Below are positions 11,228-30,023 of a DNA stretch of 32,000 bases, one piece after another. Made by a program: the position numbers and the translations under genes. Under the pieces are notes generated by a model. It did no database searches and was not told the DNA's origin. It saw nothing but the letters and a program-made list of their open reading frames with translations. Positions within the stretch are counted from its first letter, which is position 1; every line of letters starts with the position of its first letter. This DNA is from Candidatus Nitrospira inopinata (GTDB taxonomy: Bacteria; Nitrospirota; Nitrospiria; Nitrospirales; Nitrospiraceae): positions 540,001-572,000 of the forward strand of contig NZ_LN885086.1 of the NCBI RefSeq assembly GCF_001458695.1, given 5' to 3'.

Positions 11228-12066
11228 GACCCCTCACTGTTCGTATGTTCAACCGCCCAGGCTTCGCTCTCGCGTCGGAACGATGCCGCAGCGCCGTTGA
11301 TACCACGAAATCGTCGCACGACTTCGATCGGGATCAGCCCAAGCCGGTCGTGGAACTGTTTGGCCAACGACGAGGTATTGGGCGGGTGACCGGCTCCCTT
11401 CACCATCCCCTCCGCCGGGCCGAAGCAACCGTAACAGTCTCGCCCCATGCTCGGACAGATCGCGCCGCACCCGCCGCTGGTCACCGGTCCCAAACAAGGC
11501 ATCCCCTTGGCCACCACCACGCACACGTTTCCTCGCCGTTTGCACTCGAGACAGACACTGTCCGTCGGGATGCGAGGCCGGACTCCCGCCAACAGATCGG
11601 TGATGACGCGCCGCAACTGGTCTTTATCAATCGGGCAGCCCCTCAGCTCGTAATCGACCTTCACATGATCGGCAATCGGCGTGCTGGTGGCGAGCGTCCG
11701 AACGAAGTCCGGCCTGGGATAAACAACCTGTTTGTACGATTCAATGTCGGCCCAGTTGCGCAGGGCCTGAATGCCCCCAGCCGTGGCGCAGGCGCCGATC
11801 GTCATCAAAACCTTGGCCTGCTCCCGCACGGCCTTGATTCGCTCCCTATCCTCTTCAGTCGTGATCGACCCCTCGACCAGGGCGATGTCGTAGGGACCTG
11901 GGTCCATGCGGCTTGACGCCTCCGGAAAGTAGGCGATATCCAGCGCCTCCCCCAAGAGGAGCAATTCGTCTTCGAGGTTCAAGATGCTTAATTGGCAACC
12001 GTCGCAGGAGGCAAACTTAAAAACCCCCAATTTTGGCTTTTGCTGTCCTTTCATCAGAAGCGCCAT
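11224..12066 (-). CDS. hyhS: [NiFe]-hydrogenase small (delta) subunit, group 3 type, no Tat signal
   Basis: Contains the NuoB-like proximal cluster motif [10 protein letters not shown], further Cys clusters (GACATAGG; [11 protein letters not shown]; [19 protein letters not shown]) and no twin-arginine leader. Confidence 0.9.
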
Positions 12067-12075
12067 CGTCCTGCC

Positions 12076-12909: not shown

Positions 12910-14042
12910 GGGTTGTCGGACCTCCGTGCCGCCGATCGTCCATCGGACGCCAGCAAGGCGGAGAGTTCTTCTCTCACATCGATCCCCACCGGACACCAGG
13001 TGATGCAGCGGCCGCAGCCGACACAACCGGACATGCCAAATTGGTCATGCCAGGCCGCGAACTTGTGGGTGAGCCACATCCGGTACCGGTCCTTGATCAT
13101 CGGACGGATGTTCTTGCCGTGGATATAGCCATGCTCGTGGGTAAAGCAGGAATCCCACAGTCTGGTCCGCTCCGTGTGCTGCCCATCGAGAGTCGGTGCA
13201 TCCTCGATCGTGTGGCAAAAGCAGGTGGGGCAGACCATCGTGCAGTTGGTACAGGCAAGACAACGGGCCGCGACATCATCCCACCGTGGATGGTCATAGG
13301 CGTCGTAGAGCGCCTGTGGCAAGGCTGCCTGCTCTTGAAGGCGCCCTTGGCTTTCGGCGCAGGCGCCAATTCGCTTCGACGCCTCGGCCAACAGAGTTTC
13401 GGAAGCCGGCGACACTGGCAATTCCGTCAGAACCGCCTTGCCGGCTTCGCTGCCCGCTTCGATCAACAGGACGTCATCCAGTTCCGTCAGAGCAAGATCA
13501 AATCCGTTTTGGGCACGCGGTCCCGTCTTCATGGACGAGCAGAAACAGGTCGGAAGGACCCTCGTGCAATTGACCGCAATGACGAAGAGTCCTTCACGCC
13601 GACTGGCGTAAGGGGAGTCCCGATAGGGTCCTCTCAAAAAGATCTGATCTTGGATAGCCAGCCCGGCCACATCACAGGGCCGAGCGCCCAAGAGAGCGAT
13701 CTTTTCCGGCTTGGGAAGCCGAGGATAAATCGACAATCCGCCGTTCGTACGTTCAATCTGAAGCAACGGCTCGCGCGGGGCAAAAGCGAAGGGTTTCAGC
13801 GACTGGGGCCCATGGACGATTCCGAAGATCTCGCCCGTACCGGTCTGCTCCAACCGATACCGCCCCGGTTCCTGGTGGTCTCGCCAACCGATCGGCAGAT
13901 CAGAAACTCGTGCGATGGTGTCCCACACCACCGCTCCGTCACGCAGGGTGGGGCCGACGACGCGGTGCCCTTGGGCACCCAGAAGATCGAGCAAACGTTT
14001 GAGATCGGCCGACGGAAAGGCGCCGTGGTCGCTTGAGGACAT
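12906..14042 (-). CDS. hyhB: Hydrogenase beta subunit: AsrA-like 4Fe-4S dicluster electron-transfer protein
   Basis: Two ferredoxin-type motifs, CLACTNCTMVCPTCFC and CVGCGRCITWCPVG, plus additional Cys clusters. It is the first gene of the beta-gamma-delta-alpha order typical of Pyrococcus-type sulfhydrogenase operons. GGAG lies 9 nt upstream of ATG 14042. Confidence 0.88.
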   Translation of the reverse strand: MSSSDHGAFPSADLKRLLDLLGAQGHRVVGPTLRDGAVVWDTIARVSDLPIGWRDHQEPGRYRLEQTGTGEIFGIVHGPQSLKPFAFAPREPLLQIERTNGGLSIYPRLPKPEKIALLGARPCDVAGLAIQDQIFLRGPYRDSPYASRREGLFVIAVNCTRVLPTCFCSSMKTGPRAQNGFDLALTELDDVLLIEAGSEAGKAVLTELPVSPASETLLAEASKRIGACAESQGRLQEQAALPQALYDAYDHPRWDDVAARCLACTNCTMVCPTCFCHTIEDAPTLDGQHTERTRLWDSCFTHEHGYIHGKNIRPMIKDRYRMWLTHKFAAWHDQFGMSGCVGCGRCITWCPVGIDVREELSALLASDGRSAARRSDNP

Positions 14043-15805: not shown

Positions 15806-18800
15806 ATGAAACCGCTCAAAATTCTCGCCGTCGCCTGCGTCGCGCTCCTGATCATACTGGCAGGCACCGTAGCCGCGATTCGCTTCTTCTTTCCTGCCGA
15901 CCAAATCCGCAAGCAATTGGAGCGCACCTTGTCGGAGCACCTTCAAGGAACCGTGCGCATCGCCGCTTTGGAATGGGAGCTGCTGCATGGCATCCGCCTC
16001 GGTAACATCGAAATAGAAAGAAACGGCGTACCCCTCGCTCGGTTTGATCGCCTGTCGCTGCGCTACCGACTCCTCCCCCTTCTTCATGGAACAGTGGCCG
16101 TCGACGAGCTGGCGCTGATCCAGGCTGACGTCTTTGTTGATCTCGCTCTTTTCCCCGCCCCATCCCAAGCGGAACCACCCCCGCGCCGCGACGAGCCGGT
16201 CGTCCTTCCGACGCTCCCCCTGTCGGTCAACATCGAATCCATCCGCATTGAACACTCTCATGTCACCATGGTCGGTCATGACGACCTCCGTCTCACCTTG
16301 CGCGACGTCACTCTGACGTCCCGCTTGCACGCCGGCCCGAAGACCGCCGACTTGTCAGGGACTCTGGATATCGCCGACATCGAAGCGTTTGTGAACCAAC
16401 ACCGGTGGCGGCTCCCTCTGCACCTCGCCTTTACCCTCTCTGTCGATTTCCCGATGGAACGACTGGTTCTTGAACGGGTGGAGATCCGGTGCGATCCCGT
16501 AATCAGTCTCGCTGCCACCGGCCGGGTCGATCATCTTGTCTCCACCCCGACTGTGACGTTTTCTGTCCAAGAAAGCCAACTCGACTTGGAGGGGCTTGTG
16601 TCATTGGCACAGCCGTTTCTCCCTCCCCCCCTCGCTGGTGCGCGGCTGGCGGGAACGATCTCTCCCTCGCTTACCATCGCCGGCTCCCAAACCGACAGGG
16701 GATTCGACGGGGCGATCCGGCTCGACATCAACGGCCGTGACATTCGCGGATCGGCGCCCTCGTTTGGACTCTCCCTTGAGTCCACGTCTTTTCAGGTGCG
16801 GACCGGCGAGATTCCCGTTCACGCCAACCGTCCCGGTCCCATCCATGCCGACCTCTCGGTCAACATGACCGGCATCACCGCGGGAGCGGCCTCCGTGCGA
16901 GACTTGGCTTTCGGCCTTCAAGCCGACCGGAGCGAGGCGGGGCGACTCGCCGCCCATGTCACCATGAAGGGTCTGGTCTCCGCCGCACTTGAGCCGGCCG
17001 GGCCACGCCTCTCGGAGCCGCTCACGCTCGACGTCGAAACATCCGGAGACGAAACGGCCTTGTCCTTCTCTTTGACCAGGGTGGAAGCGACCGTCGGCGA
17101 CCTCGTGAGTCTCGTTGCGAACGGCACCGTCGGTCCGCTGGGAGAAGCGGGCAAACAAGCACAGGAACAACGCCCCTTTTCCTTGCGCGCCGCTGTCCGA
17201 AGCGACGCCGGTAAACTGTTTCGAGCCCTACCCCCCTCGCTCCGCCAAGGGTTCGGGCTCACGGCTCATGGCGCCCCCCAAACAGCCTCGCTCAACGTAA
17301 CCGGTTCGCTTGATGCCGACTGGCGTCCGCTGCGGGCCGAGGCCACCCTATCCCTCGACGCGGCGGACCTTCACGCCGTTCACGTGGTTTCGGCAGAACA
17401 GCGGCTTGAAGGGACCTTGGACCGGCTGACCCTTGCGCTGCGGACTGCGTATCACGCCAAGAGCGAATCGCTCAAGGGAACGGTTGACGGATTGATCAGG
17501 CTCTCACACCTGCGGCAAGGAACAACCGCAACCGTTGGAACTGTCTCCGTCACGCTCAACGGCGACATCAACGGCCGCGTAGGATCGGATTTTGCCGTCC
17601 GCCGCCTCACGGCCAGCAACCGCTTGACCTCGGAAATCCGCGATGTCCGATACGAAACTCCCACGATGACCGGGACATTCAACCACCTGACCGCCTCAGC
17701 CAAGGCCCACGGAGACCTGATTGACGGCCCCTACGTGCTGAACGAGGCCCGCCTCACCGTCGGACAGTTGCTGGACGGCAGGGTCTCCGGAACATTCAAT
17801 CCTCGAACCCAACGATTTGCCTTCGACATCGCCGTTCCCTCGCTCAACGTGGCTGAAATTCAACACCACATGACAGGACCTGCCGTGGAGTCCCTTGCAG
17901 CGGTCAAACCGTCAGGACAGCTCTCGATGCGAATCGGCGGCTCAGGGACGATCCCCACGCCGGACGACGTGGCCCAACTCACCATTCCCGTCCAGGCTTC
18001 CGCGCAGGTCGCCCTCCAGCACGTGGGAGGCTCGTTCCAAGGTCATGGGATCACAGGAGCAACCGGCACGATCAGTCTATCCGTCGAACCGCCGGAACAG
18101 CAATCGACCAAGCGCCAGGTGATCACAACCTCGTGGAAGCTCAAAACAGACCGATTGGATCTTGGCGGAGACGCCCCCGTTAAACACCTCGAGAACTTGG
18201 CGCTGGCGCTGGACGGGTCGATCGAATCCTTCGACCGGCTCACCCTTGAGCGATTCGTCCTCAGCGCCGACGGGCTCGACGCCTCGATCGACACGGAATT
18301 GTCGGGGATCAAACGGTTTCTGAACAGAAAGGAAGGGGCGCCTTGGCTCGAGGGGCTGGGTCCTCTCTTCGTCAAATCCAATCTCCAGGCTACGCTCGAT
18401 CTCGACCGGTTCGCGGATGCCGTCCGATCGTTCGGCGTGGCCGGGTCCGGGCGAGCCGGGCTCGCCCTGGTCCTCAATAAAAAAGAGCGGGGGCCGCTCG
18501 ACGTGCGGGTGACGGTGCTGCCTCATCGGTTGTCCATAGCCCAAAGAGAACAGCACGTCGAGGACTTGGACGGTGCCATCGAGCTCCGCAAGGTGCTTCA
18601 GTGGATGTCGCCTTCCGACAAACAGGCTCGTGAAGCCGAGTTTCGACCGACCGGCCTCCTTCCCGACCTTCATCTCACCGCGCCGGCGCGACGGGACATT
18701 CGTATCAGATTGGTCAAGGCCGGGCCCATCGAGGTCCGCAATCTGTCAGGACACCTGTTTCTTGACCAGAATCGCCTGGTCGTTCACAACCTGGCCATGA

Positions 18801-19363
18801 ACCTGCTCGGCGGAGGGCTTGGCGGCGAGGTCACGGGCACGGGCGGCAAGGCCTTTCGCGTGGACCTCCGGATGGAAGCAGCGGGACTGGACACGAATCA
18901 CCTGCTGCCGGCGGGCGAGCAGATCCCCGGCGACAGTCTGATCGATGCCACCGTGACTGGAACCCTCGCCTTCGACGACCAACAGGGCCGCCTCGATTTT
19001 GGCAAGAGCGTATTGGACCTATCGCTCACCAGAATCGGGCGTCACACATTGGACCGATTGCTCCGGTTTCTCGACCCGACCGGCGGCAACCCGTCGATCA
19101 TCGGCGCCCGTTCCGCAGTGAAGCTGGCGAATCCAGCTTCCGTCCGCATCACGATGTCCAAGGGGCTGGTCGCCATCCGCATACGATTTCAGGAGGGACT
19201 GCTCTCCCGTTTTGAGATGGACCGAATTCCAGCGGGCCAGATGAAACAGATCCGCGACCTCACGGCGACCATCCCACAATGGAACGATCTTCGTCGTCTC
19301 ATGGCCCTGTTGGGAGCAGAGCGATATGGAGTGGATCAAGCAGGCGGGTTTGTTTTAGAGTGA
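15806..19363 (+). CDS. AsmA-superfamily, YdbH-like intermembrane (inner-to-outer membrane) bridge protein
   Basis: N-terminal membrane anchor MKPLKILAVACVALLIILAGTVAAI followed by ~1150 aa of repetitive beta-rich sequence. The C-terminal part (..VHNLAMNLLGGGLGGEV..NHLLPAG..SVRITMSKGLVAIRIRFQ) resembles the YdbH C-terminal region as I remember it. A DUF1318/YdbL-like gene follows 4 nt downstream, as in the E. coli ydbH-ynbE-ydbL operon. Confidence 0.7.
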   Translation: MKPLKILAVACVALLIILAGTVAAIRFFFPADQIRKQLERTLSEHLQGTVRIAALEWELLHGIRLGNIEIERNGVPLARFDRLSLRYRLLPLLHGTVAVDELALIQADVFVDLALFPAPSQAEPPPRRDEPVVLPTLPLSVNIESIRIEHSHVTMVGHDDLRLTLRDVTLTSRLHAGPKTADLSGTLDIADIEAFVNQHRWRLPLHLAFTLSVDFPMERLVLERVEIRCDPVISLAATGRVDHLVSTPTVTFSVQESQLDLEGLVSLAQPFLPPPLAGARLAGTISPSLTIAGSQTDRGFDGAIRLDINGRDIRGSAPSFGLSLESTSFQVRTGEIPVHANRPGPIHADLSVNMTGITAGAASVRDLAFGLQADRSEAGRLAAHVTMKGLVSAALEPAGPRLSEPLTLDVETSGDETALSFSLTRVEATVGDLVSLVANGTVGPLGEAGKQAQEQRPFSLRAAVRSDAGKLFRALPPSLRQGFGLTAHGAPQTASLNVTGSLDADWRPLRAEATLSLDAADLHAVHVVSAEQRLEGTLDRLTLALRTAYHAKSESLKGTVDGLIRLSHLRQGTTATVGTVSVTLNGDINGRVGSDFAVRRLTASNRLTSEIRDVRYETPTMTGTFNHLTASAKAHGDLIDGPYVLNEARLTVGQLLDGRVSGTFNPRTQRFAFDIAVPSLNVAEIQHHMTGPAVESLAAVKPSGQLSMRIGGSGTIPTPDDVAQLTIPVQASAQVALQHVGGSFQGHGITGATGTISLSVEPPEQQSTKRQVITTSWKLKTDRLDLGGDAPVKHLENLALALDGSIESFDRLTLERFVLSADGLDASIDTELSGIKRFLNRKEGAPWLEGLGPLFVKSNLQATLDLDRFADAVRSFGVAGSGRAGLALVLNKKERGPLDVRVTVLPHRLSIAQREQHVEDLDGAIELRKVLQWMSPSDKQAREAEFRPTGLLPDLHLTAPARRDIRIRLVKAGPIEVRNLSGHLFLDQNRLVVHNLAMNLLGGGLGGEVTGTGGKAFRVDLRMEAAGLDTNHLLPAGEQIPGDSLIDATVTGTLAFDDQQGRLDFGKSVLDLSLTRIGRHTLDRLLRFLDPTGGNPSIIGARSAVKLANPASVRITMSKGLVAIRIRFQEGLLSRFEMDRIPAGQMKQIRDLTATIPQWNDLRRLMALLGAERYGVDQAGGFVLE

Positions 19364-19367
19364 TGGC

Positions 19368-19985
19368 ATGTTCAGAAAAACGACGGGCTACCAGTCGCCG
19401 GAAACAACCACGTCATTGAGCCGGAACCACGGCCTACGGGTGGCCATCGTGACCTACGGGATCACACTCGCCGGCTGTGGCGGGCCGCTCGTTGGTGTGA
19501 CGATCGTCGATGAAAAGACCGCGCTGGAAAATCAGGTCCTGGGCACCTACCAGGAATTGAATCAGGAAGTGCTGCTCGTCGCCTCGGTCCGTTACATTGA
19601 CCCCTCAGGCAAGTTAGTGCCGCAGCCTCCCATCCCACCGAGCAAAGAAGCGGCCATCCGCGCCATGCAACGGTCGGCTTTCAACAGGGACGACATCGAC
19701 CGGCTCAAGGCGGAAGAGATCCTGGGCGAAAATCTGGAGGGGAGACTGAGTATTCTGGCCCTGGAGAAGGTTTCCGCCGATCGCCAGGCCTTCGTCAAAA
19801 ACCTCGTGGAGGAGGAAAACGCCGACCGAGAGACACTCATGCAGCGGGTCTTGACGACCAACGAGACCTTCACGCCACAGGACCTGCCGAAAATACGACG
19901 TACCTTCGCGGCCCTCAACCGAGACCGAGCCCGTTCCGGAGACTGGATTCAACGGGAAGATGGGCAATGGGTCCGCAAACCCTAA
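19368..19985 (+). CDS. Lipoprotein with a C-terminal DUF1318 (YdbL-like) domain and an extra N-terminal segment
   Basis: Lipobox ITLAGC. C-terminal LKAEEILGENLEGRLSIL...EENADRETLMQRV...RARSGDWIQREDGQWVRKP matches the remembered YdbL pattern (GxVGE..GYL ... R.ALY ... G.W.Q...G.WV.K). Confidence 0.65.
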   Translation: MFRKTTGYQSPETTTSLSRNHGLRVAIVTYGITLAGCGGPLVGVTIVDEKTALENQVLGTYQELNQEVLLVASVRYIDPSGKLVPQPPIPPSKEAAIRAMQRSAFNRDDIDRLKAEEILGENLEGRLSILALEKVSADRQAFVKNLVEEENADRETLMQRVLTTNETFTPQDLPKIRRTFAALNRDRARSGDWIQREDGQWVRKP

Positions 19986-19998
19986 TCTGAGATGGTCT

Positions 19999-22900
19999 AT
20001 GAATCCGGCGGCGAAACGGATTTGGCTCTGGGCCTTGCTGACACCGGCGTTGGCGGCAAGCCCAATCCAAGCAGCCGGTGGGGACGGCAATCCCGAACGG
20101 CTGACGAGCCATCCGGCACTGGAGTACGCCGGCTCGCCTTCGGCTGACGGCCGTTTTCTTGCCTTTGTCTCGGAACAGAACGGCAACGCCGACATCTGGC
20201 TCAAATCCTTGACCGCCGGGATCTCCTCACTGCCCCGCCCCTTGACGACCCATCCGGGGAAAGATACGGCCCCGGCCTTGAACGAGAACGGCTCTTCACT
20301 CCTGTACGTGTCCTATCGATCGGACCCCCGCGGGGACATTTATCTGTTGGATGTCCCGACCGGCAAAGAGACCAGGTTAACCGATGAGCGACATGGCGAT
20401 TTGGCTCCGGCGTGGGGTGGAGACAAGGCCATTTATTTCTTGCGGGAACAGGAGAACTCCGGCGACCGAAGTCTCGTCCGCCTCTCACTCAGAACCGGGG
20501 CCATCGAACCGATCATTGAACGGGTGACATCCTACGCCGTGGGGCCGAATGGCACCATCGTTCATTCAGACGGCCGCCGATTATGGGTTCGCCTTCCTTC
20601 CTCATCGTCCGCTCCGCGCCCCCTCACGAGCGGCGACGTCGTGGACACGTCACCGGCGTTTGTGGACGACACCACGGTCGTGTTCACCCGCTATCAAGAT
20701 GACACGAACGGCGATGGGGTCATTGACGCGGACGATGAATCGTCCATTTATCTTGCAAGCTGGGATAAGGCGACTGGAGCACGAACCAGCCTCTACCGCC
20801 TCACCCCGGGGCAGGAGTTTCATGCCTATCCGGCCGCGAGCGGCTCGTATGTGTATTATTCGGACTTGAAGAGAAAAGACATCTATCGGTTGAACCTGAA
20901 GGAGTTTTTCGCGATCTATGCCGATCTGGCGCGCGCTCGCGAATCCGCCGCGATCCTGCTGGATCGGGGCGAGACCGAAACGGCCCTGCTCATCCTCACT
21001 AACATCTCCGCCAATCTCGCTTTGCAACTGCCGGCGGCGGAACGGGCCTCGTTCGACTTGGCACTGGTGGAGCTGTTGCGCGACGCGCGACGGTACGGAG
21101 CCGCCAAGGGTCTCCTGGCCCGCTCTGCGACGGCCGAGCCGAACGTCAGCGGGAACCACATTGGACCGATCGCCCGGGTGACATTGTCGGTCGTCCGCAT
21201 CGAAGAACGGGCCGCTCTTATGAGCCCGCGCGAACTCACACGGGCTGTCGAGGAGACGAGCAAGGAGCTGTCGGCCCTCGCGCGGCAGAGCGGACAGGAT
21301 GACACCCTTCGAGGAACCGTTTTTCTGGAAATCGGCCGCCTCCGTTTGTTGACCGAAGACCCGCTAAGCGCACTCGACGCCCTGACCCAAGTCGACAGCG
21401 TCGCCAATGACGAACTGCGGGCACGGGCCCTCTTCACCAGGGCCTCCCTGTACCGCCGCCTCGGAGAGCGGGACAAACTCCTGCACGTCCTTCTTGACGT
21501 CATCGCTTCATTCGGCGACCGAAGCTTTTGGGGCCGGAGGGCTGCGGCTCAAGCCGTGGCGATTGCCGACGACCAGGAAGACTTCCGAAAAGCCATCGCA
21601 TCCCTCACGACATTGGCCGAGGCCCATCGAACCCTTCCCTACCTGGCTGCCTCCGCCCTCCTACGCGCGGCGGACCGTGCCTACGAACAGGGCGAAGTGC
21701 TGAGGGCTGTCGAACTGTTGGACCGGGTGATTCGGGAATTCCCTGAACAGACCGCCCCGGTCGCCGACGCCTATCGGAAGAAGGGCATGATCCTCACCTC
21801 CGCCCAGCGGTTTGATGAGGCAGCCCATGCTTATGAAGCGCTGGTGAACTTGACCGGTCACAGTCAGGAGGAGCTGGAACGGGCGAAAACCCTGATGGTG
21901 CTTCAGTTGGTGCGGAGCGCACTTCGAAAACGGGAACTCGGGGAGGTCCGGATCGCCGCGAAGGACCTGCGGCAACTCGTCGAAACCTATCCCGATTCGG
22001 TCGAGGCCCATCGCGGCTACATCGAGACGAAAGTCATGCTCAAGGAATGGGACGAGGTGCGACAGTTCTACGAGAGCCTCGTCAAACAGGCCCCCGACAA
22101 CCCGACCTCTCGCTATGGACTCGGTCTGGTCCTGTCCTACGCCCCTCAGCCTAATTTCAATCTGGTCATCAAGACGATCCAGGAAGCGATCCGGCTCAAT
22201 CCCAAGATCTCTTACTTCCATCAAACGTTGGGCTGGGCCCATGAACAGACCGAACGGCTGGGCACACGCCATGCGCTCGAACAGGCGGAAGCGGAATATC
22301 GCCTCGCTCTGGAGCTGAACGACGGCTTTCTCTTTCCCGAGGTCGAGAACAATCTGCTGTTGAATCTCGGCAACATCTACATGAAGCTCGGCAATTTCAC
22401 GGAGGCCTATCGCCATTACGCGCGCCGCAAGGGCGGAGGCGTCGCCGATCGGGATCGCATGCGCGAACTGCTCTATCACAAGAATTACGGCGAGGCCTGT
22501 TTCAAAACGGGGCGGACGGAGGAATCCACTGTCCAGTACGAACGGGCTCTGGCGCTCGTGCCCGATGATCAGCCTCAGCTTCGCGCCGAGCTGTTGGAAC
22601 GACGGGGGCTGTCGCAACAAGAGGCCGGTTTGCACGCGCAAGCCGTCGAGTCCTTTTCGGAAGCCCTGGCGATCAACAATCGCCTGGGCCTTACGGACAA
22701 TCTGGCCCGCTTGAGCAGAAATGTCGGCGTCAATCTCTACAACCTGGGCGCCACGGTCTCCGACGGATCACGGGTCCCCCTTAAACGCGCCCTCAAAAGT
22801 CTGCTGGAGAGCCTGGAGACCGTCGATCGATTCGGTGTTACACAGAAAGTGGCAGGACCGGGGCTGATTCAGATCCAGGTCGGGCTGGGCGGAAACGCCG

Positions 22901-25900
22901 GCGGAGCCGCCGCCGGCTTTGATCGGCGCGGGGAAGAAAAGCTCCTGTTCAGCTTCATCGCCCGTGCGTACGAAGACTTGTCGGAGCCTCAACCGGCCAA
23001 GGAATACTACGAGAAGAAATTGGCTCTGATCCAGCCGGCCGGCGACTCACCGCAGGCGGTCGCGGCCCGCGCCGAGGAAGCGGTGGTGCTCAACCGACTG
23101 GCCGTGCTGAGCCATGCGCTGGGCCAAACCGACGAGAGCATCCGATACCTGGAGCGATCGCTCGCCCGCACGCGCGAGCTGGGGTTGGACTACGGCACAA
23201 CGGTCAATCTCTATAACCTCTCCCGCCTGGCGGCGGAGCGCCGCATGGCTGGTGAGGCCATCACGCCCAACTTGATCGACATTCTCACCGAGGGAGTCCA
23301 GGCCTTACTCCGAGACTCACAGCCAGACCGGTTGACTCTCTTGCTTCTTTCCAACGTGGCCTTTGTGTTGGCAGCGATGGACGAAGGCACGGTACCGGCA
23401 GGCCAGCCATTGGAGCTGGTCGCCCAAACGATCCACCATGTCGCGCGCGCGCGCCAGGATGCAGTCACATTCCTGAAGCGAGCCCTGGACCTCATTGAGC
23501 AGCACAAGGTCCTCTCAGGCGAAGAAGCCGATCGGCTGAAACTGATCCTGGCTCTGAACCTGTGGGATTTGGCAACCCAGGCAGGCCATGCCCCCACGGT
23601 GGAAAAGCTGGATGGCCTCATCACCGCCCTGGCCGCACAACGGCCGTCTCCCTTCGCCTGGCTGCCTCTGTTTCTGAAGGCGGAACGAACCGCCGATCTG
23701 AACCAGCGAACGGCGTTGCTCACGGAAGCGGCAGGTACGCTGCTTCGTGATCCCTCCCACCTGTTCAGCACGGGTGGGCCCGACACTCTGCCGTTGTTGG
23801 ACGGCCTGGCCTCCCTCACGACCGAGGCCTTGATCAACGGCGGCCGTATCGAGACGGCATTCGAGCTCGGCGAGCAACTCGCCATGCGAAAAACGGCCAT
23901 GCTGCTCGCCAAACGGTTCGGGGTTGATTTTCTTCTCTCCCACATCGGCGACTACGAGACAGAGTTCCGCACTATTGTGGAACAGATGCAGGCTGCTGCA
24001 AGCGAGGGGCAGACTCAGGAACTGAACCGCCTCAACGAGCAATTTCGTGAATTGACCTTCGCTCTGTATGAAGACTATCCCTGGGCCGTGTCGTATCTGC
24101 ACGAATATGAGCCGGCGCCTCATGTCCTGTCCGATGTGCTTCGGCCCGATACCCCCTATCTCAAAGTCACACCTGGCGCTCACGGCCTTCACGTCCTTCT
24201 TCACAGCGGCGAGACGGTCCGCCATGTCCATCTGCCACGCTCTTCAAATCAACCGCCGAGCTTCGATGCGGTGGTATCGCTCCTTGAGAAGGCTTCGGCC
24301 ATCTACCTGTCCTTGCCGACACATCTGCGTAACGTCATCCTCCCATGGCTCCCCAAACATGCCACCCTCGTGGAGGTGGCGTCAGTGTATGATGTGGTGA
24401 ACGCCTACCGGCTTCGAACTCTGTTTGCCTCCAGAGTCGCCATCGCCGGCGACGTGCCTTTCACCATGAAGGAAAGAGAGCCGGACAATACCTTCGTTCG
24501 GCTGACCGGCGACAGGACCCACGACAGGCCATTGTTGGAAAACCGGCATATCGTCGTCACCACGGGCCCCTACCACGACAACGGATTCGTCATCGGCTCC
24601 GACCGTGGTGTCCGTGAGCTGGTGCCCATCACAACCTTGGCAGGCAGACATCGCCATACGGCCATTCTGATGAACCATCGTGTCGATCCGGACACGATGC
24701 GGCTCATCCTGGCGCCGGCTCTGATCCGAGCCGGGTTCCCTCATATCCTGGCCACATCGGGAATGGCAGCAGGCGATCGGTCCGTCGCCGCAGACAAGTG
24801 GACACCGGACCACACACAGGCCTTCGTCATCTCCTATCTCCAATCGGTTCAATCCCAGCGAGTTGATCGCGCCGCGGCCGCTGCGCCGCGGGAAGTAACC
24901 AACCAGAAGGCCACACATCCTTCTTTCCGACTCTACGGCTACATCGGCATGACCCAGGAGGAAAAGGCCTCCTTCGCCGAATCCGAATATCAACGCGCCG
25001 TCTCCGACGCCGTGACAGCCTATCAAGCCAAACAGATGGAGATCGCCCTGCGCCGGGCGGAGGATGCCCTCTCCATCCTTCCCTTGACCAAGGCCGGTCA
25101 TGACTTTCCCAAATTGACCGAGTTGGCCGTGGAGGCGGCCTTCAAGATCGGAAACTACCGCGCGGCGGTAACACACCAGTCTCGGCTGGTCGAACAGCTC
25201 ACCACCACGGGAGATCAGGGGACCTTGGCGGAGGCCCGGTACCGTTTGGGCATCCTGTATTCCCGACTCGAAGAATTCCAACCAGCCCTGGTTCACCTTG
25301 AGGCCGCCATCAACGAGTGGCGGACGCGCGATGAACTGGACCGTTTGGCGGAGGGCGTCGCCACGTTGGGAGTGGTCAAGGAGAACATGGGAGCCTACCC
25401 GGAGGCGCTCGACGCCTTCGGACAGTCGTTTGAGCTGTATCAGGAACTGGGCGAGCCGTTGGACGTGGCGGCCCAGCATCGGCGGATCGGCCGCATCCAC
25501 TATCTCCGTCTGGGACGATATGAGCGGGCGCGGCATCACTTTGCCGCCGCGCTTGAGCAATACCGAAAACAGGGAGCGCGTCGTCTGGAGGCGGAAACCC
25601 TGTACGAGATCGGCCTCACTTATGACAAAATCGGTCTCTACGAGGAAGCGGACCGGCAGTACCTCGAAGGCCGCGCCATCGGCACGGAGTTGCAAGACTC
25701 AGCCCTTCTGGCCACCGGTTCGCTCTATCTGGCCAACACGGCCTGGTATCGAGGCCAGTATCAAGCGGCCTTCGACCATCTCGAAGCAGCGACCAAAGAG
25801 GCGGAACGGGCGCAAGACCCTCGACTCCCGATCATGATCGCGAACACGAGGGCGCTCCTGTACTGGACACTCCACGATCTCGACAAGGCCTTGGTCTATG

Positions 25901-27804
25901 CGGAACAGGCGGTTTCTCTCGCGGAACGGGCCGAGATCAAGGAGGAGATCGCGTCCTCCCATAACAATCTCGGCCTCATGTTGCGCGAGCGGGGCAAGCT
26001 CGACATGGCCTTGGACCATTTCGAACGGGCAAGACAGATCGATGAACAGCAACAGAGCCGATGGGGACTGGGCTATGACCACCGGAACATCGGCATCGCC
26101 CTGATGAAACTGGGACGGCTGGCCGACGCGCGAGCCCACTTCGAATCGGCGGAACGACACAGTGCGGCGATCAACAACATCGACAACTGGGTCAAGGCCC
26201 TGCTGGAACTGGGCAATGTCCATCGCGAGACCCAGGACTATGACACCGCGCTCGACTACTACCGCCGCGCCTATGACCTGTCCAAACGGTATCACATGAA
26301 GGACGTGCTCTGGCGAGCGGCGGCCGGGCAGGGGTCGGTGTTTCGGCTGAGCGGGAAGAAGACCGAAGCGGTCGAGCCCTATCGCGAAGCAGTCGAGATC
26401 GTCGAGAGCATGAGGGCCACCCTGACAGTTGAAGAGTTCCGCAACAGCTTCCAGACCAAGACCCAGGACCTCTATCGCGACCTGGTCATCCTGTTGATCG
26501 AACTGGGGCGCACCGACGAATCGTTCAACTATCTGGAACGGTCTCGATCGCGAAGTTTCATCGACCTTCTGGCCAACCAGAAGCTCAACTTCAAGACTCA
26601 AGCCGATCAACACCTGCTCGATCTGGTCGTGGATCTTCAGACGAAGCTCGACGCTCTCTCAAAAGAACAGGCTTCGTTCGAGCAGCCTCCTGTCGATCTT
26701 GTCACCCGCGTCCGACAAGCCAAGACGGCTTATGAGGAAGCATTGGTTCGCCTCAAACGGGCCAGCCCGGAACTGAGCACGTTCGTGGCGGTCGATCCAC
26801 TGACGATCGAACAGGCTCAGAAACTGCTTGAGCCGGGTGTCGGACTTCTCTCCTACAAGGTCACGGACGACCATGTCTATCTGTGGCTGATCACGGCGTC
26901 GGGAACCAGGTTCTATCGGACTCCGACCGCCGCTGGAGAAATCGATCGATTGGTCAGAACCTATCGGGCCAGGGTCCAGAAAATGGAATCGGTCTCCGAA
27001 GAGCTGAGCCGGCTTTCTCACCTGTTGATCGAGCCGGCTGCTCAAGACTCGGAGGGGTTGCGATATCTCGGTATCATCCCCGACGGGCCGTTGCACTTCC
27101 TCTCGTTCGCGGCCCTGCCTCTCAACACCGGCTCGTTGATCGACGCCTATCCCATCTTCTATTCGCCCTCGGCCTCGGTCTTGAAATTCACCTTCGCCAA
27201 ACGTAAGGACACGAAACACGCCAAAATCCTGGCGATCGGCAATCCGGATCTCGGCAATTACAATTATCAACTGCCGATGGCCGAATTGGAGGCGCGTAGT
27301 ATCCGATGGGAATTCCCGAATCTGGACATTCTCACGGGCGCGACGGCCACCAAGGAATGGTTGATCACCAACGTGTCTCGATACGGAGTCATCCATCTGG
27401 CCACTCACGGGGAATTCGACGACGTCAATCCTTTATTATCGTCGCTCTGGCTGGCCTCACCCAACCCGAACAACCGAAGGCTCACGGTGCGGGAGGTATT
27501 CGGCCTGACGCTGAACGCCGACCTCGTCACCTTGAGCGCCTGCCAGACCGGGCTCGGGCGGTTGGAAGCGGGCGAATTGATCGGTTTGAACCGCGCCTTC
27601 ATGTACGCCGGCACCCACACGTTGGTATCGGCGCTCTGGCGCGTGGACGACTTGGCGACCTCCCTGCTCATGAAACACTTCTATCGCAACTACGCGCGCC
27701 TGGACAAAGCCATGAGCCTTCGGCAGGCTCAATTATTGATCAAAAAGGACTTCCCTCATCCGGCCTATTGGTCGGGGCTGGTATTGGTGGGAGATTACCG
27801 GTAA
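19999..27804 (+). CDS. Giant exported multidomain protein: signal peptide, TolB-like PD40 beta-propeller, TPR array, degenerate CHAT-like module, second TPR array, active C-terminal CHAT (caspase-fold) protease
   Basis: Uninterrupted 7.8-kb ORF. The start is set at ATG 19999 (MNPAAKRIWLWALLTPALAASPIQAAG, a classical signal peptide). The ORF-track ATG 19960 overlaps the previous gene. PD40 repeats (SPSADGRFLAFVSEQNGNADIWL; NENGSSLLYVSYRSDPRGDIYLLDV). Dozens of 34-aa-type A/L/Y/G/R helical repeats. CHAT dyad VIHLATHGEF / LVTLSACQTG. Confidence 0.9.
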   Translation: MNPAAKRIWLWALLTPALAASPIQAAGGDGNPERLTSHPALEYAGSPSADGRFLAFVSEQNGNADIWLKSLTAGISSLPRPLTTHPGKDTAPALNENGSSLLYVSYRSDPRGDIYLLDVPTGKETRLTDERHGDLAPAWGGDKAIYFLREQENSGDRSLVRLSLRTGAIEPIIERVTSYAVGPNGTIVHSDGRRLWVRLPSSSSAPRPLTSGDVVDTSPAFVDDTTVVFTRYQDDTNGDGVIDADDESSIYLASWDKATGARTSLYRLTPGQEFHAYPAASGSYVYYSDLKRKDIYRLNLKEFFAIYADLARARESAAILLDRGETETALLILTNISANLALQLPAAERASFDLALVELLRDARRYGAAKGLLARSATAEPNVSGNHIGPIARVTLSVVRIEERAALMSPRELTRAVEETSKELSALARQSGQDDTLRGTVFLEIGRLRLLTEDPLSALDALTQVDSVANDELRARALFTRASLYRRLGERDKLLHVLLDVIASFGDRSFWGRRAAAQAVAIADDQEDFRKAIASLTTLAEAHRTLPYLAASALLRAADRAYEQGEVLRAVELLDRVIREFPEQTAPVADAYRKKGMILTSAQRFDEAAHAYEALVNLTGHSQEELERAKTLMVLQLVRSALRKRELGEVRIAAKDLRQLVETYPDSVEAHRGYIETKVMLKEWDEVRQFYESLVKQAPDNPTSRYGLGLVLSYAPQPNFNLVIKTIQEAIRLNPKISYFHQTLGWAHEQTERLGTRHALEQAEAEYRLALELNDGFLFPEVENNLLLNLGNIYMKLGNFTEAYRHYARRKGGGVADRDRMRELLYHKNYGEACFKTGRTEESTVQYERALALVPDDQPQLRAELLERRGLSQQEAGLHAQAVESFSEALAINNRLGLTDNLARLSRNVGVNLYNLGATVSDGSRVPLKRALKSLLESLETVDRFGVTQKVAGPGLIQIQVGLGGNAGGAAAGFDRRGEEKLLFSFIARAYEDLSEPQPAKEYYEKKLALIQPAGDSPQAVAARAEEAVVLNRLAVLSHALGQTDESIRYLERSLARTRELGLDYGTTVNLYNLSRLAAERRMAGEAITPNLIDILTEGVQALLRDSQPDRLTLLLLSNVAFVLAAMDEGTVPAGQPLELVAQTIHHVARARQDAVTFLKRALDLIEQHKVLSGEEADRLKLILALNLWDLATQAGHAPTVEKLDGLITALAAQRPSPFAWLPLFLKAERTADLNQRTALLTEAAGTLLRDPSHLFSTGGPDTLPLLDGLASLTTEALINGGRIETAFELGEQLAMRKTAMLLAKRFGVDFLLSHIGDYETEFRTIVEQMQAAASEGQTQELNRLNEQFRELTFALYEDYPWAVSYLHEYEPAPHVLSDVLRPDTPYLKVTPGAHGLHVLLHSGETVRHVHLPRSSNQPPSFDAVVSLLEKASAIYLSLPTHLRNVILPWLPKHATLVEVASVYDVVNAYRLRTLFASRVAIAGDVPFTMKEREPDNTFVRLTGDRTHDRPLLENRHIVVTTGPYHDNGFVIGSDRGVRELVPITTLAGRHRHTAILMNHRVDPDTMRLILAPALIRAGFPHILATSGMAAGDRSVAADKWTPDHTQAFVISYLQSVQSQRVDRAAAAAPREVTNQKATHPSFRLYGYIGMTQEEKASFAESEYQRAVSDAVTAYQAKQMEIALRRAEDALSILPLTKAGHDFPKLTELAVEAAFKIGNYRAAVTHQSRLVEQLTTTGDQGTLAEARYRLGILYSRLEEFQPALVHLEAAINEWRTRDELDRLAEGVATLGVVKENMGAYPEALDAFGQSFELYQELGEPLDVAAQHRRIGRIHYLRLGRYERARHHFAAALEQYRKQGARRLEAETLYEIGLTYDKIGLYEEADRQYLEGRAIGTELQDSALLATGSLYLANTAWYRGQYQAAFDHLEAATKEAERAQDPRLPIMIANTRALLYWTLHDLDKALVYAEQAVSLAERAEIKEEIASSHNNLGLMLRERGKLDMALDHFERARQIDEQQQSRWGLGYDHRNIGIALMKLGRLADARAHFESAERHSAAINNIDNWVKALLELGNVHRETQDYDTALDYYRRAYDLSKRYHMKDVLWRAAAGQGSVFRLSGKKTEAVEPYREAVEIVESMRATLTVEEFRNSFQTKTQDLYRDLVILLIELGRTDESFNYLERSRSRSFIDLLANQKLNFKTQADQHLLDLVVDLQTKLDALSKEQASFEQPPVDLVTRVRQAKTAYEEALVRLKRASPELSTFVAVDPLTIEQAQKLLEPGVGLLSYKVTDDHVYLWLITASGTRFYRTPTAAGEIDRLVRTYRARVQKMESVSEELSRLSHLLIEPAAQDSEGLRYLGIIPDGPLHFLSFAALPLNTGSLIDAYPIFYSPSASVLKFTFAKRKDTKHAKILAIGNPDLGNYNYQLPMAELEARSIRWEFPNLDILTGATATKEWLITNVSRYGVIHLATHGEFDDVNPLLSSLWLASPNPNNRRLTVREVFGLTLNADLVTLSACQTGLGRLEAGELIGLNRAFMYAGTHTLVSALWRVDDLATSLLMKHFYRNYARLDKAMSLRQAQLLIKKDFPHPAYWSGLVLVGDYR
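20101..20900 (+). other. TolB-like PD40 beta-propeller domain of the giant protein
   Basis: Repeated pattern [S/N]xDG..[LI]xFxS.R.G..D[IL][WY]..: DGRFLAFVSEQNGNADIWL, GSSLLYVSYRSDPRGDIYLL, GDKAIYFLRE, GTIVHSDGRRLWV, DDTTVVFTRYQDD..., GSYVYYSDLKRKDIYRL. Confidence 0.7.
26815..27801 (+). other. Catalytically intact CHAT domain of the giant protein
   Basis: GLLSYKVTDDHVYLWLITASG ... YLGIIPDGPLHFLSFAAL ... YSPSASVL ... ILAIGNPD ... HLATHGEF (His codon 27406-27408) ... LSACQTG (Cys codon 27541-27543) ... LNRAFMYAGTHTLVSALWRVDD ... HPAYWSGLVLVGD: the complete ordered CHAT motif series. Confidence 0.88.
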
Positions 27805-27826: not shown

Positions 27827-28351
27827 ATGATGCGTGACCGACGTGTGTGTCTGGCGATGGTGACCTTGGGAACGGCCCTGGCGCTGGTTCCCTCTCTTCT
27901 GTTCGCTCAGACCATGTACGTGAGCCGGGATGAGGTCAAGCTGACAGAGGAAAAATCTCCCACCTCCAAGATCGTGGAGACGCTCCGTCGAGGAGCCCAG
28001 GTTCGGGTCATCGAGAAGAGCGACCGCCATTTCAAAGTGCAAGCCCCCTCCGGAAAAACCGGCTGGGTCTTTAAGTTTACGCTGAGCGATCAACAGGTCG
28101 GCGGAGGAAGCGGCGGGAATCTCCTCTCCGCGGTGACGGGCGACACCCGCATCGCGGCCCGCGAAGCCGGCACCGGCGGCAGCATCAGAGGATTGAAAGA
28201 AACCTCGGAACGGTACGCGACGACCAAACGAGTCGATCAGGCAAGCAAAGACGCAGTGCAGAGGATGGAAGACCGCATCATCCCGCGGGAAGAGCTGCTC
28301 AAGTTCCAGCGGGAAGGATCGGTCGGAGAATTTTCGGGGGAGACGCCATGA
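27827..28351 (+). CDS. Secreted bacterial SH3 (SH3b) domain protein with a Gly-rich linker and a charged helical tail
   Basis: Signal peptide MMRDRRVCLAMVTLGTALALVPSLLFA|Q. SH3b pattern MYVSRDEVKLTEEKSPTSKIVETLRRGAQVRVIEKSDRHFKVQAPSGKTGWVFKFTL. Its stop overlaps the start of the M48 gene (ATGA at 28348-28351). Confidence 0.7.
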   Translation: MMRDRRVCLAMVTLGTALALVPSLLFAQTMYVSRDEVKLTEEKSPTSKIVETLRRGAQVRVIEKSDRHFKVQAPSGKTGWVFKFTLSDQQVGGGSGGNLLSAVTGDTRIAAREAGTGGSIRGLKETSERYATTKRVDQASKDAVQRMEDRIIPREELLKFQREGSVGEFSGETP

Positions 28352-29322
28352 ACGGAACCATGAAGCGGATCATGAAGAGAACATGGATGGTCACGTTTGT
28401 GTCTCTCGCGTTGGTGAGCGGGACCGTGGACCAATCATGGGGGATTTTGGACCAACTGCTCTCGCCTCCCGCCGAAAAGAAACCAAGCCAACCAAAAGGC
28501 CAACCCCAACCCTCCGAGCAAAAGGGTCTGGTTGACGGGATCGGCGGATTGCTGGGAGCCAAGGAGAAAGACATCGGCCTCATCAAGAAGGGACTTAAGG
28601 CCGCCCAGGCCCTTCAGCCGATTGGGCTTGAAGAAGAGATTGCCATCGGCCAAGCCGTGGCCATTGAAGCGTTCGCCCGATTCGGGGGCGAATACAAGGA
28701 CGAAGCGCTCACGACCTATGTCAACTTGGTGGGAAGGACCGTCGCGGAGGTCTCGGATCGGCCAGAACTGACCTACCGGTTCGCGATTTTGAACAGCCGC
28801 GAGCAGAACGCCTTCGCGGCGCCGGGCGGCTATATCTTCGTCACGATCGGCCTGCTCAAGACACTCAAGAACGAGGCCGAGCTGGCCGGCGTGTTGGCGC
28901 ACGAGGTCGCGCACGTCACGCAAAAACACATGCTGAAGACGCTCCAGCGAAGCGCGATCCTGGCCAACGTGTCCGAATTCAGCTTGAGCGCGATGAACAA
29001 GGATCCCAAATTGTTCTCGAATGTCATCGATGCGGCGACCGACATGCTGTTCGAAAAGGGGCTCGACAAGGAGATGGAGTTCGAGGCCGATACCGTTGGA
29101 ATGGAATACACCTACCGAGCCGGCTACCATCCGAACGGTTTGAGAGATTACCTGGCCACGCTCAAGGCACAGGAGGGAACGGCCGACTCGCGATTCTTCT
29201 CAACCCATCCCTCGACCGGAGAACGATTGAGGCGGGCAACGGACACGGCGAGCCGTTACACGGGAGCAAGCAAGTACCCCTATCTGACTGAACGGTTTCG
29301 CTCGCGCATGGGCCCGGCATAG
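28348..29322 (+). CDS. Secreted M48-family zinc metalloprotease (LoiP/BepA-like catalytic domain, no TPR domain)
   Basis: Signal peptide, then NAFAAPGGYIFVTIGLL, the HExxH site LAHEVAHVTQKH, a downstream Glu (EFEAD) and the conserved FSTHPSTGERL tail. Confidence 0.9.
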   Translation: MNGTMKRIMKRTWMVTFVSLALVSGTVDQSWGILDQLLSPPAEKKPSQPKGQPQPSEQKGLVDGIGGLLGAKEKDIGLIKKGLKAAQALQPIGLEEEIAIGQAVAIEAFARFGGEYKDEALTTYVNLVGRTVAEVSDRPELTYRFAILNSREQNAFAAPGGYIFVTIGLLKTLKNEAELAGVLAHEVAHVTQKHMLKTLQRSAILANVSEFSLSAMNKDPKLFSNVIDAATDMLFEKGLDKEMEFEADTVGMEYTYRAGYHPNGLRDYLATLKAQEGTADSRFFSTHPSTGERLRRATDTASRYTGASKYPYLTERFRSRMGPA

Positions 29323-29439
29323 ATTGACTCCCTATCGGCTCGGACGCACGGACACCGAGGCGGGCGAATCTTTTTTGATGCCCGGGACTCCTACCAAGAG
29401 GGAAGCCCTTGTATAATGAAACGTAAAAGGAGGTGAGCA

Positions 29440-29601
29440 ATGACACAGGGTCTTGTTGAGGGAGCCCTCGCGATCAGCGCCGTGGCGTCGCTGCTGACGA
29501 TCTTTGTGATCTCCTTGGGAATCATGAAGGTCGGGACGCCGGAGAGGGTTGCCATTCCAGCAGAGAGCCGGCGTTCTCGTCGGAGAAGCGTTCGGGAATA
29601 G
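29440..29601 (+). CDS. Small single-TM protein (53 aa), hypothetical
   Basis: Below the ORF-track cutoff; translated by hand as MTQGLVEGALAISAVASLLTIFVISLGIMKVGTPERVAIPAESRRSRRRSVRE. A strong SD AAAGGAGGTGA ends 5 nt before the ATG. A perfect TATAAT at 29412-29417 lies 22 nt upstream, with no convincing -35. Confidence 0.4.
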   Translation: MTQGLVEGALAISAVASLLTIFVISLGIMKVGTPERVAIPAESRRSRRRSVRE

Positions 29602-29612
29602 CCCGCCTACCC

Positions 29613-29658
29613 CGGAGGCCGCAGTCTCCACACTGAGGTTCTCGGAACTCGGCCTCCG
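29613..29658. terminator. Hairpin between convergent small genes; possible terminator
   Basis: CGGAGGCCG (29613-29621) pairs perfectly with CGGCCTCCG (29650-29658), a 9-bp stem. The loop is a long 28 nt with a small inner CTC/GAG pairing. The downstream tract is T-rich but not a clean U-tract. Confidence 0.3.
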
Positions 29659-29726
29659 TCGGTGTCTCTGTCTTTCTCTTCCTGCCGCTTTCGAATCCCG
29701 CAACGGTCGGATTTCCCGTTTCCTCC

Positions 29727-30023
29727 TCAGCCGGGCGGGGTCGAGAGTTTCCACGCCACGATCAGCGCGATACCGGCAGCGATGATCGCAAGCCCGATCA
29801 TCCATCGGGTAAATTTCCGTTGCGCGTCGGCCACCACCTTCTCCATTTTCTTCTTGAGGGCCGGTTGGGAAGCCACATAGGTCTCGACCAATTCCTTGGC
29901 TTCCTTGAAACCGATCTGCCGCTCTCGGCGCACGGCCGTGATCGCTCCGATCAGATCGCCGCGTCGAAGCGCTTCGAGCGCCGCTTTGGGAAGATCGACT
30001 GAACGTCGGGTTATATTGGCCAT
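29727..30023 (-). CDS. Small membrane protein with an L7/L12-C-terminal-like motif plus a C-terminal TM helix; paralogue of 14314-14598
   Basis: DLPKAALEALRRGDLIGAITAVRRERQIGFKEAKELVETY closely resembles the AIK.VR...GLGLKEAK.LVE helix pair of the ribosomal L7/L12 CTD. It is followed by the TM helix WMIGLAIIAAGIALIVAW. The start is set at ATG 30023 (MANITRR..) by analogy with the paralogue. The ORF is open up to 30125. Confidence 0.6.
   Translation of the reverse strand: MANITRRSVDLPKAALEALRRGDLIGAITAVRRERQIGFKEAKELVETYVASQPALKKKMEKVVADAQRKFTRWMIGLAIIAAGIALIVAWKLSTPPG

Follow-up and report, generated by a model that had tools for sequence, protein, structure and literature searches.

The 32,000-nucleotide stretch of the Candidatus Nitrospira inopinata genome analyzed here (contig NZ_LN885086.1, positions 540,001 to 572,000 of the forward strand; hereafter the window, in whose own coordinates all features are given) contains, at 19999-27804 on the plus strand, a gene for a protein of 2601 residues, which we refer to as the giant. 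As judged from its sequence, the giant is a very probably exported and internally duplicated tetratricopeptide repeat (TPR)-CHAT protein that carries a TolB-like propeller and is encoded in a conserved envelope cassette, representing a variant that has not been described previously. Its layout consists of a signal peptide, the propeller, some 450 residues of TPR-like helices and two successive modules, each composed of a TPR array followed by a CHAT domain, the first of which is dead. Public databases name the family merely 'CHAT domain-containing' or 'tetratricopeptide repeat protein', no NCBIfam model is passed by the protein, and the family was not found in the literature on CHAT in a periplasmic or signal-peptide, Nitrospira, DUF1318 or outer-membrane TPR context. 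An earlier note on the same DNA had overlooked the internal duplication, the degenerate CHAT domain and the conserved operon.

Architecture of the giant

The coding frame is open without interruption from 19960 to 27804, and translation from the ATG at 19999 gives a protein that begins with MNPAAKRIWLWALLTPALAASPIQAAG, congruent with the uninterrupted 7.8-kb open reading frame (ORF) and the N-terminus quoted in the earlier note. Since about 70 full-length homologues of 2500-2970 residues exist, with identities down to 27%, the frame represents a real and intact gene rather than a frameshifted frame, a pseudogene or a chance frame. One homologue, P0001, which is 95% identical and likewise 2601 residues long, shares the Met start at ATG 19999. 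The mature protein amounts to about 287 kDa.

The C-terminal end of the giant is a member of the CHAT family and a predicted active protease. The module comprises residues 2234-2601 (26698..27801), with the Pfam CHAT core (PF12770) at residues 2335-2599 (nt 27001-27795) matched over profile positions 3-289 of 289 with an expectation value (E) of 7.7e-57 and a score of 193.4 bits (cut-off 24). A search of the same module against PDB sequences gave no match at E <= 0.01. The catalytic motifs, HLATH2470G and SAC2515QTG, place His2470 at codon 27406-27408 and Cys2515 at codon 27541-27543. When 73 full-length homologues were aligned with MAFFT, the histidine proved to be present in 73 of 73 and the cysteine in 72, the remaining sequence having a gap at this position; profile and alignment together thus bear out the intact His/Cys dyad, and the codons, previously assigned to this domain. 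Within a set of homologues with an overall identity of 43-52% (P0017-P0057), the regional values are 12% for the signal peptide, 46% for the propeller, 28% for the pseudo-CHAT domain, 54% for the second TPR array and 71% for the CHAT core, which is thus conserved best of all regions. The unvarying dyad, together with this level of conservation, favors catalysis being under selection, with the selection strongest on the predicted active protease.

A second, degenerate copy of this fold is located in the middle of the protein. Residues 1301-1700 have no Pfam match; hhalign, run on the middle-domain family alignment and the C-terminal CHAT module, on the other hand returned a probability of 91.5% (E 8.6e-7, 286 columns). 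The AlphaFold2 (AF2) model of residues 1300-1690 reached a predicted local distance difference test score (pLDDT) of 90 and a predicted template modelling score (pTM) of 0.91, and the top matches in a Foldseek search of the PDB were the Craspase TPR-CHAT 8d9h_E (E 4e-6), the SAVED-CHAT protein 8tl0 and Csx29 8eex_B, with human and yeast separase retrieved at E 5e-5 to 1e-2; the top matches to all of these span E 4e-6 to 3e-4, and the template modelling (TM) scores are low, 0.29-0.47. The sole cysteines of the giant are C834 and C2515, none within the middle domain, and across the family the position of the catalytic Cys is taken by Ile, Leu or Val, with the His-aligned position devoid of a conserved His. 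Fold, homology and loss of the dyad therefore identify the middle domain (residues ~1338-1650, 24010..24948) as a pseudo-CHAT domain.

The repetition extends beyond the CHAT domains. Residues 757-1635 aligned by hhalign to residues 1677-2583 with a probability of 99.8% (E 6e-28, 810 columns), and the giant is therefore a tandem duplication of a module of about 900 residues, each copy with its TPR array and its CHAT domain. The array of module A covers residues 757-1337 (22267..24009; hhalign duplication, with Pfam TPR at 787-857 and 1028-1090), and that of module B residues 1677-2233 (25027..26697; hhalign, with Pfam TPR_12, TPR_1 and TPR_2 at 1700-2140). A profile of the pseudo-CHAT domain matched 47 cluster representatives among 1.84 billion proteins, about half of which are at least ~2000 residues long and were matched at the corresponding position, the rest being shorter proteins. 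On these profile data the family is small and its architecture fixed.

Towards the N-terminus, residues 28-299 (20080..20895) form a predicted six-bladed PD40 beta-propeller of the TolB type. The PD40 repeats score 55-67 bits in Pfam, the AF2 model of residues 28-330 (pLDDT 93.6, pTM 0.91) contains 24 strands within residues 28-299, equivalent to six four-stranded blades, and TolB accounts for every one of the top 17 Foldseek matches in the PDB (E 4e-13 to 2e-11, TM 0.63-0.66, ~20% identity), so that Pfam and Foldseek agree with the propeller that had been proposed earlier from the PD40 repeats. S9-peptidase propellers and tricorn 1k32_A follow in the list after TolB (E 1e-10 to 5e-9), and precomputed Pfam matches to Tricorn_N and Tricorn_2nd are present in homologues. 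As to the orthology of the giant, TolB itself was rejected, the TolB model TIGR02800 yielding 49.7 bits (cut-off 343) and covering profile positions 226-359 only, a likeness at the level of the fold.

The propeller is connected to module A by a first helical region, residues 300-756 (20896..22266; Pfam TPR_6, TPR_19 and YfiO). Combined with the two arrays, the helical-repeat portion amounts to about 1600 residues (300-1337 and 1677-2233), with Pfam TPR calls confined to ~490-860, 1028-1090 and 1700-2140. The more than 1500 residues of TPR repeats claimed in the earlier note hence hold for the amount of helical repeat, but not for its continuity, as the pseudo-CHAT domain, about 300 residues of non-TPR sequence, interrupts it in the middle. 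Residues 525-671 are YbgF/CpoB-like (NCBIfam tol_pal_ybgF, E 5.6e-11) and also resemble the TPRs of BamD, both below cut-off; at the domain level only, the N-terminal ~700 residues are reminiscent of two fused Tol-Pal-type periplasmic modules, a propeller and a YbgF-like TPR.

Export and location

The first 25 residues (19999..20073) have the composition of a Sec-type signal peptide, with K6 and R7 in the n-region, the h-region IWLWALLTPALAA and the c-region IQA/AG. The h-region is 13 residues long and interrupted by Pro, and I-Q-A precedes the predicted cut, the cleavage site being assigned by rule only. This region is conserved as a property rather than as a sequence, in line with its low identity: in nearly all full-length homologues a hydrophobic stretch precedes the conserved T-x-HP with which the propeller opens, the spacing between the two being constant, and in the distant homologues P0062, P0069, P0071-P0073, P0075 and P0077 lipoboxes are present instead. 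Homologues that are devoid of a hydrophobic N-terminus are few, and all are truncated gene calls; for the copy of Candidatus Nitrotoga sp. BS, a longer call exists, which its depositors named 'conserved exported hypothetical protein' and in which a signal peptide is clearly recognizable. Throughout the giant, the Kyte-Doolittle mean of every 19-residue window stays below 1.6, so that neither a transmembrane helix nor a signal anchor is predicted.

The Nitrotoga copy merits a separate remark. Its RefSeq start is truncated, with loss of the signal peptide. The organism is a betaproteobacterial nitrite oxidizer, and the copy (P0046/P0089, on a 41.5-kb contig) is ~45% identical to the Nitrospira protein, a closeness that equals that of many Nitrospirales copies. 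This suggests horizontal transfer between co-occurring nitrite oxidizers, or else a binning error.

The cysteine content is congruent with export. The giant has 2 Cys in 2601 residues (0.08%), where the remaining ORFs of the window average 1.66% (binomial P ~1e-16); its homologues typically have 1-5, with a median of 3 for those of the Nitrospirales type, and some possess the catalytic Cys alone. All four operon partners are similarly Cys-poor, each with a membrane anchor, a lipobox or a signal peptide. The signal-peptide property, the lipoboxes of the distant homologues, the depletion of cysteine, the envelope neighbors and the lack of a transmembrane segment make it very likely that the giant is exported by the Sec pathway, and it likely resides in the periplasm rather than on the surface. 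Of the 'periplasmic or surface' location proposed in the earlier note, export as such is supported by the N-terminus, the lipoboxes, the cysteine depletion and the neighbors, and the periplasm is the likelier of the two compartments. The view that a cysteine protease at work in the periplasm would be unusual was overstated, since other clan-CD enzymes function outside the cytoplasm; the gingipains and clostripain, both clan-CD cysteine proteases, act extracellularly.

The five-gene cassette and its conservation

The gene of the giant is the third of five tightly packed genes on the plus strand, with spacings of 4, 13, 22 and -4 nt. Gene 1 (15806..19363) encodes a predicted AsmA-like protein of the repeating beta-groove type, 1185 residues long and with the N-terminal anchor MKPLKILAVACVALLIILAGTVAAI, assigned from Pfam and NCBIfam, the latter including a weak match to the TamB N-terminus. 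Gene 2 (19368..19985) encodes a predicted lipidated, YdbL-like DUF1318 protein of 205 residues. It is followed by the giant (gene 3, 19999-27804), by gene 4 (27827..28351), which encodes an exported SH3_3 protein of 174 residues with a signal peptide (Pfam SH3_3, with an NCBIfam TIGR04211 match below cut-off), and by gene 5 (28348..29322), which overlaps gene 4 by 4 nt and encodes an exported M48 zinc metalloprotease of 324 residues. A scan of the operon for promoters and terminators gave nothing transcript-defining above the shuffled expectation.

The gene 5 product matches Pfam Peptidase_M48 at E 4e-32, with an intact HEVAH motif at residue 185, and NCBIfam BepA at E 2e-29, scoring 103 bits against an equivalog cut-off of 570. 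BepA is a periplasmic M48 protease that possesses a TPR domain and acts on the BAM/LptD pathway. The two have a BepA-like protease domain, an intact HExxH and a signal peptide in common, whereas the gene 5 product has no TPR domain of its own, the TPRs of the cassette being placed on the giant instead.

The assignment of gene 2 is based on its DUF1318 domain at residues 109-204 (Pfam, 42 bits against a cut-off of 27), on similarity to Escherichia coli YdbL (BLASTP, E 1.3e-6) and on a weak similarity to the crystal structure of YdbL, 28oj_A (E 0.039). The lipobox, TLAG-C37, has G36 and C37 invariant in 7 of 7 orthologues, and the orthologues are conserved over their full length at 37-61% identity. 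Between the lipobox and the DUF1318 domain, residues 38-110 (window 19368-19700) contain a conserved N-terminal module of ~40 residues that has no Pfam model, with the consensus VxVxVVDERTALENQVLGTYxxLxQDxLLVASVRGVD; this module could contact the AsmA-like protein. A fused YnbE was considered as its identity and found no support, with no Pfam match at E <= 10, an insignificant BLASTP result and an hhalign probability of 0.04%, in what is a weak test, as a single YnbE sequence was used for the comparison.

Conservation of the cassette was assessed at eight genome loci, from Nitrospirales, Magnetococcales, Thermodesulfobacteriota, Sumerlaeota and one other assembly. Six loci were looked up, namely those of Nitronereus, Magnetococcales, Thermodesulfobacteriota, Sumerlaeota, one Joint Genome Institute (JGI) metagenome contig and one assembly, and a profile search of genome contigs added at least two, Nitrospira sp. 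T9 and a second Magnetococcales locus among the matches listed. A DUF1318 gene is found directly upstream of the giant in all eight (8/8), with a length of 190-200 residues in the six that were looked up. The same six all have a gene of 1200-1480 residues upstream of the giant, in which AsmA, DUF748 or TamB_N was detected in five; the exception, in L006, encodes 1276 residues without a Pfam match. By tblastn, an AsmA-like orthologue is present in 6/8 loci, with none at E <= 1e-3 in L003 and L005, and the Nitrospira sp. T9 and second Magnetococcales loci agree with the order AsmA-like, DUF1318, giant. An orthologue of the SH3 gene was detected by tblastn in 4/8 loci (L001, L003, L004 and L007), and in L006 the gene call reveals an SH3-domain gene at the same position; the M48 gene is conserved in the same loci as the SH3 gene. 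In three of the six looked-up loci the SH3 and M48 genes are downstream of the giant; two lack them, and in Sumerlaeota they immediately precede the cassette. In the Nitrospira sp. T9 locus (L007 4158-5385), the AsmA-like and DUF1318 genes, which abut in the window and in other loci, are separated by ~1.2 kb, and this gap may hold an additional gene or inserted DNA.

When metagenomes were scanned with the profile of DUF1318, 419 relatives were retrieved, of which the 38 closest loci were fetched. Wherever at least 1.2 kb of flank was available, the giant is directly downstream of the DUF1318 gene (27/27), and the SH3 and M48 genes are downstream in each of those loci that have at least 9.6 kb of it (8/8); upstream, the AsmA-like gene is present in 18 of 20. 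More distant DUF1318 lipoproteins (L048-L084) are ~195 residues long and 44-53% identical to the DUF1318 protein of the window. In the two loci of this group that were examined (L051 8635-10558 and L052 8595-10540), the DUF1318 gene directly follows a beta-ketoacyl-acyl carrier protein synthase gene, an arrangement that appears to be another tie of this DUF1318 type to lipid metabolism.

The rest of the window is unrelated to the cassette and encompasses CBS and alpha/beta-hydrolase genes and a hydrogenase. The latter, of the four-subunit group-3b-like [NiFe] type, is encoded on the minus strand (9905-14042 and 4012-9451), followed by hypA, hypF, hypD and an hypE-like AIRS gene; its subunits (Fer4, FAD/NAD, small with Oxidored_q6 and large with NiFeSe_Hases) are Cys-rich and cytoplasmic, and fit a Nitrospira-type genome. 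ORFs of 427, 293 and 157 residues, at 1432-3609 and 29332-29805 on the minus strand, had no Pfam match at the thresholds used.

Proposed role and alternatives

The conserved operon, in which the partners of the giant are all envelope proteins, is the best clue to its function. In our assessment, the giant is probably an exported, active protease that is functionally tied to the envelope cassette. By sequence and fold it shares only common domains with the known systems that it resembles, and is placed outside the TolB, tricorn/S9, Csx29/Craspase and defense families.

In Csx29 as in separase, an active caspase-like unit is accompanied by a non-catalytic one, a pairing that the dead and live CHAT domains of the giant resemble. 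Csx29/Craspase (8d9h, 8eex; PMC10028731) and SAVED-CHAT (8tl0) share with the giant a TPR array and a C-terminal CHAT domain with a His/Cys dyad. However, the known TPR-CHAT proteins are cytoplasmic, 470-750 residues long and activated by RNA or cyclic-nucleotide defense sensors, whereas the giant, with its ~2600 residues, has a signal peptide, a TolB-like propeller and two complete TPR and CHAT modules, its dead and live CHAT domains are ~600 residues apart, and it is encoded in an envelope operon without defense genes. Separase (human 7nj0/9hms, yeast 5u1s) is likewise a very large helical-repeat protein that ends in a pseudo-protease and an active protease, but it is eukaryotic, cytoplasmic or nuclear and cleaves cohesin, with its pseudo and active domains adjacent and with neither a propeller nor an export signal. 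TolB (2w8b, 2hqs), which is periplasmic, shares the six-bladed PD40 propeller; the giant differs from it in that the N-terminal alpha/beta domain of TolB is missing and in being located outside the tol-pal operon.

The closest parallel to the cassette itself, rather than to the giant, is offered by E. coli. There, an intermembrane bridge, to which a part in phospholipid transport has been ascribed, is built from the inner-membrane-anchored AsmA-like protein YdbH and the outer-membrane lipoprotein YnbE, with the periplasmic DUF1318 protein YdbL controlling YnbE multimerization (PMC11126948). The ydbH-ynbE-ydbL operon likewise has an AsmA-family gene that precedes a DUF1318/YdbL gene, with all products in the envelope, and it also supplies a precedent for periplasmic proteolysis, free YdbL being degraded by the periplasmic protease DegP unless protected by YnbE (bioRxiv 10.64898/2026.03.16.712125). 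The systems differ in that the DUF1318 protein of the cassette is ~200 residues long and lipidated, with the extra conserved N-terminal module, and in that CHAT, SH3 and M48 genes are missing from the E. coli operon.

With these analogies in mind, a mechanism can be outlined. The propeller and the TPR solenoids would serve as docking or scaffold surfaces, in the manner of the TolB propeller, which binds the lipoprotein Pal (PDB 2hqs, 2w8b titles), and would hold the giant at the AsmA-like/YdbL-like intermembrane machinery, or draw clients from it. The C-terminal CHAT domain would then cut an envelope client site-specifically, with the lipidated YdbL-like protein, the bridge protein and the outer-membrane partner of the bridge as candidates, and the BepA-like M48 protease might possibly act alongside. 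The dead CHAT domain could regulate its live counterpart or bind substrate for it, as in separase and Csx29, TPR/helical-repeat CHAT-type proteases that are under allosteric control (PMC10028731; PDB titles). By having so few non-catalytic cysteines, the giant may be adapted to an oxidizing compartment, where its catalytic thiol would be spared from mixed disulfides. Extending the comparison further, we tentatively raise the possibility that the giant cleaves a bridge component or a stalled assembly intermediate, and in this way controls the assembly or the turnover of the AsmA-like bridge, the dead CHAT copy being its allosteric partner.

A number of observations weigh against this picture, in whole or in part. 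What the giant cleaves, where it docks and what its pseudo-CHAT domain does are here proposed from synteny and analogy only. The N-terminal Pfam matches of gene 1 to YhdP, AsmA and DUF748 are below gathering scores, and an assignment specifically as YdbH was rejected, as comparison with E. coli YdbH by BLASTP gave E > 1 and the matches are generic; the protein is not detectably closer to YdbH than to the other paralogues. A YnbE homologue was not found in the cassette, in which genes 1 and 2, only 4 nt apart, leave no room for a small ORF of its own and no Pfam match was obtained. SH3 and M48 genes were not found beside the giant in three of the eight genome loci (L002, L005 and L008, the length of the downstream flank being unchecked for L008). 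The more distant DUF1318 lipoproteins (L048-L084) are mostly without the giant, and the dependence is one-way: the giant always occurs with the AsmA-like and DUF1318 genes, and not the reverse. Finally, ATG 19999 is the probable start of the giant, with the ATG at 19960 as the alternative; the latter would add 13 residues and overlap the upstream gene, with a signal-like N-terminus kept with either start.

Other readings of the giant were weighed against that of an active envelope protease. It may be mainly a structural or scaffold protein of the envelope, with a CHAT domain that only processes itself or binds, and does not cleave in trans. About 60% of the giant is indeed repeat scaffold, propeller plus ~1600 residues of TPR-like helices, one CHAT copy is already non-catalytic, and the operon encodes a separate M48 protease. 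A dyad that is essentially invariant and a CHAT core with 71% identity are nevertheless as expected from selection on catalysis, and we regard this reading as unlikely, with the qualification that autoprocessing alone is possible and is here indistinguishable from client cleavage.

Still less probable is that the propeller gates the access of substrates to a periplasmic caspase-like protease in the style of tricorn or prolyl oligopeptidase, with the TPR solenoids contributing to the gate, as the earlier note had put forward. The Tricorn_N and Tricorn_2nd matches of the homologues, as well as the S9 propellers and tricorn 1k32_A in the Foldseek list, are in line with such an arrangement. In tricorn and the S9 peptidases, the propeller is packed directly on the catalytic domain. 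In the giant, by contrast, about 2000 residues, including the entire module A with its TPR array and pseudo-CHAT domain, separate the propeller from the active site, the best structural matches (all of the top 17) are to TolB, a docking propeller, and neither tricorn C1, PDZ or C2 nor S9 domains were detected by Pfam or NCBIfam. The gating proposal thus finds no support in a TolB-like docking propeller at such a distance from the catalytic dyad.

We consider it equally improbable that the giant is exposed on the surface or secreted and acts on external targets, such as biofilm matrix, competitors or a host, instead of in envelope biogenesis. The signal peptide, the very large size and the richness in repeats are shared with many surface proteins, and the distant homologues are lipoproteins, which can be surface-exposed in some phyla. 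Against this, Pfam and NCBIfam detected no autotransporter, two-partner secretion (TPS), type I secretion system (T1SS) or type IX secretion system (T9SS)-type domain, the propeller resembles that of periplasmic TolB, and the synteny is strictly with periplasmic or inner-membrane-anchored types (AsmA-like, YdbL-like and BepA-like M48). A cytoplasmic conflict or defense TPR-CHAT effector of the Csx29/Craspase or SAVED-CHAT type, with an incidentally hydrophobic N-terminus, deserves hardly any credence, for while the TPR-CHAT arrangement is that of Csx29 and the middle domain matches Craspase and SAVED-CHAT by Foldseek, PADLOC returned a generic TPR model only, with the four neighbors unmatched, no CRISPR, CBASS or STAND genes are nearby, where the genes are of envelope or hydrogenase function, the position in the envelope operon is fixed across phyla as opposed to that in variable defense islands, signal peptides and lipoboxes are conserved, and the depletion of cysteine is extreme.

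The reading that we favor, an exported protease linked to the AsmA-like/DUF1318 cassette, bears on the route of phospholipids to the outer membrane, and on the assembly and control of AsmA-like bridges such as YhdP, TamB and YdbH. To our knowledge, YnbE and YdbL of E. coli are the sole accessory factors of such bridges to have been characterized. Should the giant indeed cleave a component of the bridge or an assembly intermediate, it would be the first protease dedicated to the regulation of an AsmA-like lipid bridge, and CHAT enzymes would gain their first role in the periplasm, with caspase-fold proteolysis built into outer-membrane biogenesis. TPR-CHAT enzymes would then extend from cytoplasmic immunity to envelope housekeeping, and the tandem of pseudo-protease and predicted active protease would provide a natural object for studies of regulation. 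As the cassette is common to several phyla, it also yields testable candidates for proteolytic control of AsmA-like bridges. For the biology of nitrifiers, the giant stands out as a large and conserved, predicted envelope protein that is present in many Nitrospirales genomes.

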